From Chrysonvirus as5 (Duplodnaviria > Heunggongvirae > Uroviricota > Caudoviricetes > Straboviridae): a stretch of 64,000 nt of DNA. Made by a program: the position numbers and the translations under genes. Under the pieces are notes generated by a model, which was not told the DNA's origin, ran no database searches, and worked only from the letters and a program-made list of their open reading frames with translations. The stretch lies in IMG/VR virus record IMGVR_UViG_650627007_000001, positions 43,172 to 107,171 of that record; one strand, given 5' to 3'. Position 1 is the first letter of the stretch. Each line of letters begins with the position of its first letter. Below, one piece after another: positions 2,055-46,764 of this stretch.

Positions 2055-2576
2055 TTATTGTGCTATGCAATCGCAGTTCTGCAATTTGCGCATATTGGAT
2101 TTGACTTTAGCAAGGTAGGTCTGTCCATCTTTACCGCGATAGTTGAAACCCGCATTGTATGAAGCAATGACTTTACTCCAAGACTTCTTACCATGAACAC
2201 TTTGCCAGTATTTCAAGTTCAGTTCGGTCATTGAAGCAGATAGCTCCATATTCTCGATTAGACCCTTTTTCAGGTCTCGAACTTGTTTCGGGGACATTTT
2301 GTAACCAGTCTCTTTTTCGATTGCTCGAACGGTGTATCGCAGGTTGTTTTGAAAAACACCATAATCACCGGAAACGTTGTTTACAAGATCTTCACCGGCT
2401 TGACTCTCGGTCAAAGCGATAGCGGCGAAAGTCATCCCATAATCCATTGATTGACCTAGCTCATAAGCACGATTGACAACATACAGTTGATTTTCGTTGA
2501 GGTCAAGATCGTTTGTAGCATTGGCATTAAATGCACTGCCCATCAGTGCCAGTAGTAATGCGAACTTCTTTAACAT
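2055..2576 (-). CDS. secreted lytic transglycosylase (SLT-like)
   Basis: signal peptide, AIALTES catalytic Glu, GVFQ and SYNAG motifs. Confidence 0.8.
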   Translation of the reverse strand: MLKKFALLLALMGSAFNANATNDLDLNENQLYVVNRAYELGQSMDYGMTFAAIALTESQAGEDLVNNVSGDYGVFQNNLRYTVRAIEKETGYKMSPKQVRDLKKGLIENMELSASMTELNLKYWQSVHGKKSWSKVIASYNAGFNYRGKDGQTYLAKVKSNMRKLQNCDCIAQ

Positions 2577-2688: not shown

Positions 2689-2761
2689 CACTATTTTCTG
2701 GTAACAGATCGGTTTGATTATAATCTATACACGTTCAGAAATCGAAGATCGCGGCGTAGCC

Positions 2762-2840
2762 GCTAACTTATTGATCTCCAAAGAAAAGACAAAGTAAATT
2801 CTCATTAAAGTATTATAAGAGATTTTATTTTCTCTTTTTG
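2762..2840 (+). repeat. 79-nt AT-rich quasi-palindromic element, copy 1
   Basis: 70/79 identical to reverse complement of 46553-46631 (manual alignment); intergenic. Confidence 0.9.
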
Positions 2841-2854
2841 TAACATCTTCTTAA

Positions 2855-3172
2855 CTAGCGACTGGCGTCGCCGTCTTCGACGTCTACACATTTCGGTTCT
2901 TTAAGATCTTTCCGATAGTGACAGATTACCTCATTTTGTTTCTTGACATAACCAAACACTCGTTCAAGCCAGATTCGGTATCTAACTGAGTCATCATAGC
3001 TCATTGCTACGTAAGGTTTTCCCTCGTCTAGGATAACTCGCCACTCTGGCTTGTATGTCTCCACTGTTTCTGGTAGTGGAGGATGATAAACAACAGGCTT
3101 AATTTGCTCTGCTGTAGATGCGCATCCACCCAACAGTAAAGTTAGGCCGACCATCGCATATTTCATTTGCAT
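2855..3172 (-). CDS. pseT.2: o-spanin lipoprotein (Rz1-like, T4 pseT.2 equivalent)
   Basis: lipobox LLGGC, Pro-rich stretch, paired with i-spanin. Confidence 0.8.
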   Translation of the reverse strand: MQMKYAMVGLTLLLGGCASTAEQIKPVVYHPPLPETVETYKPEWRVILDEGKPYVAMSYDDSVRYRIWLERVFGYVKKQNEVICHYRKDLKEPKCVDVEDGDASR

Positions 3173-45955: not shown

Positions 45956-46462
45956 TCAGGATTTCAGACGACCAATAAAGTCATATTTGGTGCGAAGCTC
46001 GGTGATCATAGCGATACCGTTGTTTTTCGCGCTGTATTCTTCGATACCAAGCAGGTCGCGCATTTGTGCGTAGGACACGAAGAACACTTGATGTTTTGCT
46101 TCTACCTCACGCCAAGCTTTTACGATACTGGCATCGGTGAAGATTTCGGTAGATCGCTTGCACAAGTAATCGCCCAATGCTTTGTTTTGCTCGGTACGCG
46201 GATTATTCAAGCGACGCAGAACTTCCTTAAAGCCAGTTTTGCGTTTCTGAATACCGACGTGGTTTACGCTAACGATATCGCGCAGGCGAGCGTCATTAGT
46301 CGGGAAAGTAGCGATCAGATAGAAACCAGGAGTAGTCAGATCGTGATTCACAGGTACCCGAGCAATTTGGCCAGGAGTAAACTCCAGAATGCCAGTTTTG
46401 TTAGGGAACAGAGTACCGATATACAGTGCGTTTCCCATAAGGAGATTAGTATTCAATTTCAT
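45956..46462 (-). CDS. ndd: nucleoid disruption protein
   Basis: IGTL, L..PGFY, VG.Q..K.GF..VL as in T4 Ndd; synteny. Confidence 0.75.
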   Translation of the reverse strand: MKLNTNLLMGNALYIGTLFPNKTGILEFTPGQIARVPVNHDLTTPGFYLIATFPTNDARLRDIVSVNHVGIQKRKTGFKEVLRRLNNPRTEQNKALGDYLCKRSTEIFTDASIVKAWREVEAKHQVFFVSYAQMRDLLGIEEYSAKNNGIAMITELRTKYDFIGRLKS

Positions 46463-46489: not shown

Positions 46490-46518
46490 ATTATTACACA
46501 CTAGCTAACGTGTGTCAA
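46490..46518 (-). promoter_or_regulatory. sigma70-like promoter of ndd
   Basis: TTGACA...TAATAAT with ACACAC/GTGTGT inverted repeat in spacer. Confidence 0.7.
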
Positions 46519-46552
46519 CACTGCGGCATAGCCGCTAATTGTTACTATGTAA

Positions 46553-46631
46553 CAAAAAGAGAAAATAAAATCTCTTATATATCTTATATGAGAATTTACT
46601 TTGTCTTTTCGTTAGAAATCAATATGTTAGC
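46553..46631 (-). repeat. 79-nt AT-rich quasi-palindromic element, copy 2
   Basis: 70/79 identical to 2762-2840 in inverted orientation. Confidence 0.9.
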
Positions 46632-46683
46632 TTCGCAGTCGCTGGCGCGACATTTGGAGTTTAATTATTATACTATCTATTCA

Positions 46684-46754
46684 CCAAATCGATTTGGAGC
46701 GATTCCTTATCTAATTGATATCATCGCATAGACTATCGCTAGGAATCGCTCCAA
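46684..46754. repeat. 14-bp palindrome plus 14-bp-arm inverted repeat
   Basis: CCAAATCGATTTGG 46684-46697; TTGGAGCGATTCCT 46694-46707 / AGGAATCGCTCCAA 46741-46754. Confidence 0.85.
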
Positions 46755-46764
46755 TGTCTTCCTA

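Follow-up and report, generated by a model that had tools for sequence, protein, structure and literature searches.

We analyzed a window of 64,000 nucleotides, corresponding to bases 43172-107171 of the 225,268-bp virus record of the T4-like Aeromonas phage Chrysonvirus as5, and found that two intergenic, non-coding elements in it belong to a family of seven that is dispersed at regular distances over the phage genome. Each element is built around an AT-rich quasi-palindrome flanked by small GC hairpins, and the quasi-palindromes are among the least stable DNA segments of the genome. The same seven sites are filled in related phages of three genera, and the elements can be inverted between genomes while their neighborhoods are kept. 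We tentatively propose that these elements are orientation-independent unwinding or cruciform DNA sites that are recognized by a protein, and that they most likely represent candidate origins of replication. Positions given below are those of the window, unless they are marked as genome positions.

A family of seven elements at syntenic sites

By profile search, we identified seven copies of the element, at genome positions 7.8, 46.0, 89.8, 115.2, 134.4, 174.2 and 204.4 kb, and the similarity between copies is far above chance (nhmmer E 1e-13 to 1e-25). We named the corresponding sites A to G, and the two copies within the window are sites B and C. A sequence-only reading of the window had described these two as a duplicated 79-nt element. 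The similarity that it measured holds: positions 2762-2840 (+) and the reverse complement of 46553-46631 align without gaps and are identical at 70 of 79 nucleotides, with five of the nine differences (positions 7, 15, 18, 21, 45, 46, 50, 51 and 52 of the alignment) inside the central 8 nt. The scale had been underestimated, as there are seven copies rather than two and the repeated unit spans approximately 140-170 bp rather than 79 nt.

The nearest relatives are also T4-like Aeromonas phages, namely Aeh1 and Ah1 (Cinqassovirus), avDM12 (Chrysonvirus), and PX29 and the AsFcp phages (Angelvirus). We mapped all sites in Aeh1, Ah1, avDM12 and PX29, which represent three genera, and searched AsFcp_4 less thoroughly. 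Aeh1, Ah1 and avDM12 have eight copies each and PX29 has seven, while four were found in AsFcp_4, at sites A, C, D and E. Comparison of the flanking proteins, which in the four relatives mapped genome-wide are just 44-87% identical, showed that the same seven intergenic sites are filled in Chrysonvirus as5, Aeh1, Ah1, avDM12 and PX29. The only difference in number is due to a tandem pair at site G, with members approximately 45 nt apart, in Aeh1, Ah1 and avDM12 (hereafter the Aeh1 group), compared to a single copy in Chrysonvirus as5 and PX29. The occupancy of all seven sites in four relatives indicates that the set is old and has been retained.

The gene contexts of the sites are diverse. At site A, the order is gp14, an open reading frame (ORF) on the opposite strand, the element and gp15. 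Site B lies between Rz-like spanin genes and a gene with an SLT domain, site C between a 58-aa ORF and an ndd-like gene, site D upstream of gp47, and site E between two small conserved ORFs. Site F separates an ARH hydrolase gene from a PARP-like gene of 1187 aa, and site G a tail-tube-like gene from the gene of the baseplate hub protein gp26. The avDM12 record has identical ends, both with copy E (131-255 and 230847-230971); this terminal duplicate is probably an assembly overlap broken at the repeat rather than a biological terminus.

The gaps between neighboring sites measure 19-44 kb, and the sites are spaced more regularly than expected from random placement (coefficient of variation 0.25 in Chrysonvirus as5, 0.20 in Aeh1 and 0.28 in Ah1; P-value approximately 0.001-0.002), a result that counts as a single test because the genomes are related. 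Cumulative GC skew turns where genes switch strand, and its turning points coincide just loosely with sites C and G.

As far as we could find, the family is confined to the phiAS5/Aeh1/PX29 clade of T4-like Aeromonas phages. No member outside this clade was detected in 50,697 phage records. A pattern scan of IMG/VR returned true members only in Aeh1, Ah1 and PX29, the remaining loci being chance matches, and two patterns had zero matches in JGI metagenome contigs. When bacterial genomes were scanned with a loose pattern, none of the 120 loci among the matches listed was true by the family profile, which does not amount to absence from bacteria. The literature on the Aeh1 genome, T4 relatives, PX29, phiAS5, T4 origins, promoter early stem-loop (PeSL) elements and bacterial interspersed mosaic elements (BIMEs) yielded no description of the family.

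Anatomy of the repeated unit

We derived the anatomy of the unit from the alignment of 41 copies. The unit begins with a mini-hairpin of the AGTC-GAA-GACT type and a GC hairpin of 5-6 bp, which a variable segment of 5-40 nt separates from the core. The core is an AT-rich quasi-palindrome of 58 bp, in which outer arms of 11 bp (AAGASAAARTA) enclose a TCTC/GAGA box, a short upper stem and a center of 4-5 nt that varies. It is followed by a conserved asymmetric block, WWTCAAYRRGTTAGC, and by a second GC hairpin and mini-hairpin, and many copies end with TTTCTGGAAGAG-N9-ATGAAC or a decayed form of it. The GC hairpins differ in sequence and keep their pairing (GCGGC/GCCGC, GCGAC/GTCGC, GCGCC/GGCGC and GTCGC/GCGAC), and most of them have a triloop or tetraloop of the form G(N)NA on the strand running towards the center. 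The genome has 17 hairpins of this type, and comparison with the copy sequences places most of them within the seven elements. The asymmetric block fits the consensus of the integration host factor (IHF), WATCAANNNNTTR (WATCAR-N4-TTR), in four of the seven copies of Chrysonvirus as5, in nearly all copies of the Aeh1 group (all but site E of avDM12) and in two of the seven copies of PX29.

At site C, the full unit occupies 46520-46653 (+; profile match at genome 89691-89824, nhmmer E 5e-32), between the ndd-like gene and the 58-aa ORF, in synteny with Aeh1, Ah1, avDM12, PX29 and AsFcp_4. Its left GC hairpin, GCGGC-ATA-GCCGC (46523-46535, +), is seen in the sequence and in the folds, and its stem covaries among copies. 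The core (46554-46611, no strand) is followed by the asymmetric block AATCAATATGTTAGC (46617-46631, +), which matches the IHF consensus at genome position 89788, has a high information content and sets the orientation of the unit. The right GC hairpin, GTCGC-TGGC-GCGAC (46638-46651, +), carries the loop GCCA on the minus strand, where it had been noted from the letters as GTCGCGCCAGCGAC. At site B, the full unit lies at 2736-2874 (-; profile match at genome 45907-46045, E 1e-37) between the spanin and SLT-domain genes, both assigned with PHROG and Pfam, and its core at 2782-2839 (no strand, placed by the alignment, as at site C). The two hairpins of this copy, read on the plus strand, are GCGGC-GTA-GCCGC (2751-2763), which is the right one of the unit, and GCGAC-TGGC-GTCGC (2858-2871), the left one, which extends into the final codons of the spanin ORF 2855-3172 (-). 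The motif GCGGC(G/A)TAGCCGCTAA had been reported at both loci and is indeed present at 2751-2766 and 46523-46538.

A 73-aa ORF with a GTG start (46510-46731, +) runs across the site C element; we consider it spurious. Small core-spanning ORFs are not conserved between copies. Short ORFs overlap further copies as well, for instance at genome 174078-174245. Such ORFs match each other in tblastn searches because the DNA is repeated, and almost certainly none of them is a gene. Rfam (gathering threshold) and ARAGORN searches of the whole window returned no family match, no tRNA and no tmRNA.

Low stability, conserved arms and concerted evolution

We ranked all non-overlapping 60-bp segments of the genome by nearest-neighbor duplex stability. 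The seven cores took ranks 1, 2, 4, 5, 6, 7 and 9 from the lowest, with the site C core at rank 5 and the site B core at rank 7, and their AT content lies above the 99.8th percentile. The cores therefore provide the AT-rich, easily unwound segment of approximately 50 bp that is expected of T4 origins. Two segments among the nine least stable, at genome 17518-17578 and 118215-118275, do not belong to the family; both are AT-rich and intergenic.

Both strands of the cores fold into long irregular hairpins (z-scores of -3.5 to -5.3 as RNA and approximately -4.5 as DNA). In the 29 distinct cores, 94% of the arm cells are paired, compared to 37-60% in slid controls, and three pairs show changes on both sides between genera (8-50, CG/GC/UA; 11-47, AU/GC; 19-39, CG/UA). 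A count of copies and a check for covariation between arms and spacer had been suggested when the element was first noted, and they return seven copies and arm pairs that covary between genera. Selection thus maintains the arms as complementary or symmetric. The primary sequence is also strongly conserved, including the unpaired positions and the asymmetric block, which argues for recognition of the sequence and not of the fold alone. In addition, four of the seven copies of Chrysonvirus as5 share the same two arm mismatches. Together with the conserved sequence, these shared mismatches are easier to reconcile with sequence recognition at each half than with a need for a stem alone.

Paralogs within a genome are 83-93% identical, whereas orthologs between genera are 73-81% identical, approximately as much as non-orthologous copies. 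The copies therefore evolve in concert within each genome, a behavior that fits gene conversion, the tracking of a common trans factor, or both. Beside copy E, the protein of the gene at genome 134510-134971 (-) is 84-86% identical to those of Aeh1 and avDM12 and 44-47% identical to those of Ah1 and PX29, and this mosaic neighbor places a recombination boundary in the element or close to it.

The orientation of the unit varies between phages. At site C, the whole unit, hairpins included, is inverted with respect to its conserved flanks when Chrysonvirus as5 and PX29 are compared to the Aeh1 group, and at site E when Chrysonvirus as5 and avDM12 are compared to Aeh1, Ah1 and PX29. A strand-specific mRNA leader or a small-RNA gene would not tolerate such an inversion, while a symmetric DNA site or a hairpin that can form from either strand would.

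A CapR-type zinc-finger gene adjoins copy A

The element had been said to have no gene to explain it. We found, however, that gp14 and gp15 enclose a 203-aa ORF of the opposite strand (genome 7133-7744, -; outside the window). In all genomes mapped at site A (Chrysonvirus as5, Aeh1, Ah1, avDM12, PX29 and AsFcp_4), the start of this ORF is approximately 20 nt away from the right end of the element. The encoded protein is cysteine-rich, and its close homologs are confined to this phage clade. On the single protein, the Pfam CapR domain scores below the cut-off (18.6 versus 24.2 bits, E 0.002), and its support comes only through profile search: a profile of three orthologs finds 40 proteins, and eight of the nine that were tested carry CapR, DUF723 or DUF4379 domains, seven of these with three or four CapR domains. 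The alignment of orthologs has the conserved Cys/His columns of CapR-type zinc fingers. Approximately three CapR or treble-clef modules fill the 203 residues, so that a nuclease domain could not be accommodated. The AlphaFold2 model of the protein was poor (pLDDT 47) and was not used.

CapR domains are sequence-specific DNA binders that derive from T5orf172 homing endonucleases, as shown experimentally (PMC8096241, PMC10448857), and a stand-alone CapR is a proven sequence-specific transcriptional repressor (PMC8096241). Judged by its sequence, the 203-aa ORF looks like a nuclease-less relic of a homing endonuclease that resembles a domesticated DNA-binding module. Many solo copies have a right flank that shares homology with the ribosome site and initial codons of this ORF, and in the Aeh1 group the first copy at site G is followed, in the tandem spacer, by ATG AAC TAA, a vestige of the ORF start. 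The element family has therefore been historically tied to the CapR-type gene, whose product is the obvious candidate for the factor that may read the palindromes.

Promoters and flanks of the elements

In every case, the element separates a gene end from the promoter of the following gene. Sites B, C and E have early promoters of the TTGACA-N16-17-TAnnnT type, site D has a T4-type GTTTAC promoter, and sites A, F and G have CTAAATA, the late promoter motif of Aeh1 (PMC1524935). The late motifs at genome 7909-7915, 204312-204318 (-) and 174111-174117 (-) fall between the outer hairpin and the ribosome site of gp15, the baseplate hub gene and the PARP-like gene, respectively. The strong promoters beside the elements all face away from the core. 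At site C, the early sigma-70-type promoter of the ndd-like gene (46490-46518, -; TTGACA, 17 nt, AATAAT, with TG) abuts the left hairpin, and the gene itself follows at 45956-46462 (-; Ndd-like in PHROG). At site B, the early promoter of the SLT-domain gene (2660-2688, -; TTGACA, 17 nt, AATAAT) precedes the gene at 2055-2576 (-).

On the other side of site C, a stretch at 46684-46754 (no strand) is specific to this site and falls outside the repeat family. It comprises the 14-bp palindrome (46684-46697) and the perfect inverted repeat with 14-bp arms (46694-46707 and 46741-46754) that the sequence-only reading had listed with the element. The inverted repeat (46694-46754) has a loop of 33 nt and lies between the element and the 58-aa ORF, and a 10-bp stem, TTGGAGCGAT/ATCGCTCCAA, is kept in Aeh1, Ah1 and avDM12.

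The element at site D has beside it, in all genera, a canonical intrinsic terminator that consists of an A-run, a GC stem with CGAA as its loop and a T-run. The presence of this separate terminator indicates that the element is not simply a terminator. Candidate transcription signals inside the elements were rejected. Neither the late promoter TATAAATA nor the Aeh1-type CTAAATA occurs in the core, and there is no TGCTT of a MotA box. In addition, ATCTCTTAT and ATCTATTTT are motifs that we take to resemble the 13-mers of E. coli oriC, and they are too short to be given weight.

The elements as candidate origins of replication

A role as origins is, in our judgment, the leading explanation, though a tentative one to which we give well under even confidence. 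The element would act as a cis-acting DNA signal regardless of its orientation. Its AT-rich quasi-palindrome, which is the most meltable DNA of the genome, would be clamped by the small GC hairpins, and both arms would be recognized in a sequence-specific manner by a clade-specific factor, for which the three-domain CapR-type protein encoded beside copy A is the candidate. Host IHF might assist at the adjacent WATCAA-N4-TTR-like block. DNA synthesis would then start at the elements, either as sequence-related origins or as cruciform or unwinding sites that load the phage helicase, approximately every 30 kb. We rank this role first because it alone explains the spacing, the combination of AT-richness with GC clamps, the exact number of seven sites and the indifference to gene orientation. 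The sequence-only reading had proposed a repeated origin or a site for a dimeric protein, and this proposal gives the best fit to the syntenic and regularly spaced copies, the extreme instability of the cores, the compensatory changes in their arms and the independence of orientation, as a candidate rather than a demonstrated function.

Several observations weigh against origins. The evidence from spacing comes from related genomes, whose tests are not independent, and low duplex stability is in part a consequence of AT-rich non-coding DNA. The mismatches shared by four copies indicate that perfect symmetry is not required, and the strict IHF consensus is present in just four copies of Chrysonvirus as5 and two of PX29. 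A family of origins with a consensus would be unprecedented in this virus family, as T4 origins have neither a shared motif nor an initiator (PMC3016281), and the T4 unwinding element is not sequence-specific, whereas the core of the present elements is highly conserved. A promoter scan called none that reads into the core. The best internal sigma-70 candidate (TTGAT, 18 nt, TAAATT; copy C, minus strand) matches 8 of 12 positions, has a C at -7 in PX29 and was rejected. The TATAAT hexamers that had been taken as a shared upstream feature, 35-37 nt from the core, are present at 2719-2724 (+) and 46667-46672 (-). Like the late-like motifs of the right flank, they are not conserved across copies or relatives, and the one at site B sits in the stretch that shares homology with the ribosome site and start codon of the CapR-type ORF. 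With these hexamers unconserved and the strong promoters facing away, the analogy once drawn with T4 oriF and oriG, in which a promoter fires into an unwinding element, is weak.

Within the origin hypothesis, a more ambitious version would be a dedicated origin system that is new to Straboviridae, with seven evenly spaced palindromic origins or helicase-loading sites and the protein with three CapR domains as phage-encoded initiator or origin-marking factor. We consider this version unlikely, more so than the operator or RNA roles discussed below. In any case, a sequence-defined, evenly spaced and meltable set of seven offers concrete and testable candidates for origins, or for topological or transcriptional boundary sites. 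This bears on how T4-type phages choose their start sites, given that T4 origins have no motif and that the large Aeromonas relatives have no MotA-dependent middle promoters. If the elements are instead regulatory or selfish, they would still be a clear instance of dispersed repeats that evolve in concert at fixed positions of a lytic phage genome, and possibly a second example of a domesticated DNA-binding module of a homing endonuclease.

Alternative explanations

The same protein could act on transcription. The elements would then be operators or roadblocks of the CapR-type protein, which would bind the seven palindromes, autoregulate its gene at site A and insulate or time the adjacent transcription units. 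We regard this as possible, although on balance unlikely. The position of each copy between a gene end and the following early or late promoter, the CapR-type start beside copy A and the proven repressor activity of a stand-alone CapR (PMC8096241) would all suit an operator. Independence of orientation and concerted evolution are likewise expected of the target of a DNA-binding factor, and three zinc-finger modules per monomer could plausibly span a half-site of 23-26 bp. However, the center of the core lies 60-70 bp upstream of the -35 box of the adjacent promoters, which is too distant for simple occlusion, and the promoters to be regulated belong to differing classes. Regular spacing and extreme AT-richness would also be left unexplained.

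To a signal acting in RNA we assign a similarly low, but real, probability. When read through, the core would form a hairpin of approximately 27 bp with several mismatches, accompanied by the GC hairpins, and could serve in processing of the RNase III type, as a stabilizer of 3' ends or as a terminator. The strong folding of both strands is consistent with this role, with the strand in the sense of transcription folding best at most sites owing to G-U pairs, and so are the compensatory changes in arms and flanking hairpins and the location at the 3' ends of genes. Inversion, moreover, would not keep a quasi-palindrome from folding. Against this stand the conservation of unpaired positions and of the asymmetric block, AT-rich stems that are followed by no U-tract, and the canonical terminator that at site D lies between the upstream gene and the element. 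Site A is located between the diverging gp15 and CapR-type ORF, where read-through is not expected. The loops are mostly G(N)NA rather than the usual GNRA or UNCG of RNA, G-U versus A-C pairs show no consistent strand bias, and the element has no match in Rfam.

The ties to the CapR-type gene raise the question of whether the elements are selfish or relic cassettes, that is, the regulatory region of a once-mobile homing-endonuclease gene of the T5orf172 type, present in seven copies and homogenized by gene conversion, or at most a recombination module like PeSLs. The right flanks with homology to the ribosome site and ATGAAC of the CapR-type ORF, the ATG AAC TAA at site G of the Aeh1 group, the concerted evolution and the mosaic boundary beside site E all favor such a descent, and nuclease genes and PeSLs are known to mark boundaries of exchange between phages (PMC10448857, PMC4122927). 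We nonetheless find it improbable, as exactly seven syntenic sites are filled in all four relatives mapped genome-wide, across three genera, with regular spacing and a strongly conserved core bearing compensatory changes. Neither presence/absence polymorphism nor non-syntenic copies, the marks of miniature inverted-repeat transposable elements and other mobile repeats, were seen in Chrysonvirus as5, Aeh1, Ah1, avDM12, PX29 and the four AsFcp_4 copies, and no copies were found outside the clade in phage records, IMG/VR or JGI metagenome contigs.

More improbable still is a chromosome-organizing site comparable to E. coli BIME-1/RIB or to the strong gyrase site of Mu, at which IHF and a type II topoisomerase would manage supercoiling. 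Inverted GC palindromes around a conserved IHF-like linker at the 3' ends of transcription units recall BIME-1 (PMC3333891), and the regular spacing and the dyad symmetry with a variable 4-nt center would agree with such a site. The hairpins, however, measure 13-14 nt and not the 20-40 nt of repetitive extragenic palindromic (REP) sequences, and they lack the GTAG foot of REPs; the IHF match is just partly conserved; and BIMEs number hundreds and do not occupy fixed syntenic sites.

Finally, a small non-coding RNA gene with its own promoter, which had also been suggested, is hardly credible: the TATAAT-like hexamers 35-37 nt from the core in both window copies and the stable fold would speak for it, but the hexamers are unconserved in the other copies and relatives, no conserved promoter, terminator or Rfam family was found, and between phages the unit flips its orientation without any shift of the flanking promoters, which still face away from the core.

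Comparison with known systems

T4 has up to seven mapped origins, of which oriF and oriG, of approximately 100 bp, contain an AT-rich unwinding element (PMC3016281). At oriF (uvsY) and oriG (gene 34), a promoter, of the middle mode in T4, lies directly upstream of the unwinding element and replication is primed by an R-loop. T4 origins have no sequence motif in common and work without an initiator protein (PMC3016281). The elements described here resemble T4 origins in being compact, AT-rich and meltable segments at several chromosomal sites near promoters. They differ in that all belong to one sequence family and carry palindromic arms, GC clamps and an IHF-like block. In addition, no conserved promoter was found to read into their core. 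The core sequence is conserved, whereas unrelated sequence can substitute for the unwinding elements of T4. The phage clade to which they belong has neither MotA nor middle promoters (PMC1524935).

In E. coli, BIME-1 elements (RIB/RIP) consist of inverted REP palindromes on either side of a linker with an IHF site, and they are extragenic, located at the ends of transcription units and repeated in the genome (PMC3333891). In the present elements, two inverted GC hairpins flank a conserved segment of approximately 100 bp with an IHF-like block, in a comparable genomic setting. Unlike BIME-1, they reside in a phage, in seven copies rather than hundreds, with hairpins of 13-14 nt that lack the GTAG foot and with a 58-bp quasi-palindrome as linker. 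The neighboring gene encodes a CapR-type zinc-finger protein, and there is no REP-associated tyrosine transposase (RAYT) of the HUH type.

PeSLs are composite intergenic cassettes of T4-type phages (PMC2839356, PMC4122927), and the elements share with them a stem-loop that adjoins an early promoter (site C) and a link to mosaic boundaries. PeSLs measure approximately 50-60 bp, are numerous, lie in hyperplastic regions and vary between close relatives. The present elements, in contrast, have a large AT-rich core, precede late promoters as well and are fixed at seven sites across genera, in part among core genes (gp14/15, gp47 and gp26). The PeSL arrangement of a stem-loop and a strong early promoter within approximately 50-60 bp is recognizable only at the outer edge of the elements at sites C, D and E, while those at A, F and G precede the late CTAAATA and the unit spans approximately 150 bp.

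The intergenic RNase III (R) sites of phage T7 are approximately ten related irregular hairpins that lie in a single orientation on one transcript and are proven RNA substrates. The likeness lies in conserved, related irregular hairpins at syntenic intergenic positions of a phage. The elements depart from R sites in their flips of orientation, in the location of one site between diverging genes and in their extremely AT-rich DNA.

The closest parallel to the ORF beside copy A is CapR of the Vibrio PLE satellite, together with the CapR/DUF723 domains of T5orf172 proteins (PMC8096241, PMC10448857), with which it shares tandem CapR modules, here without a nuclease. While CapR acts on one promoter of the helper phage, the putative targets of the present protein, as predicted from the sequence, would be seven palindromes in its own genome.

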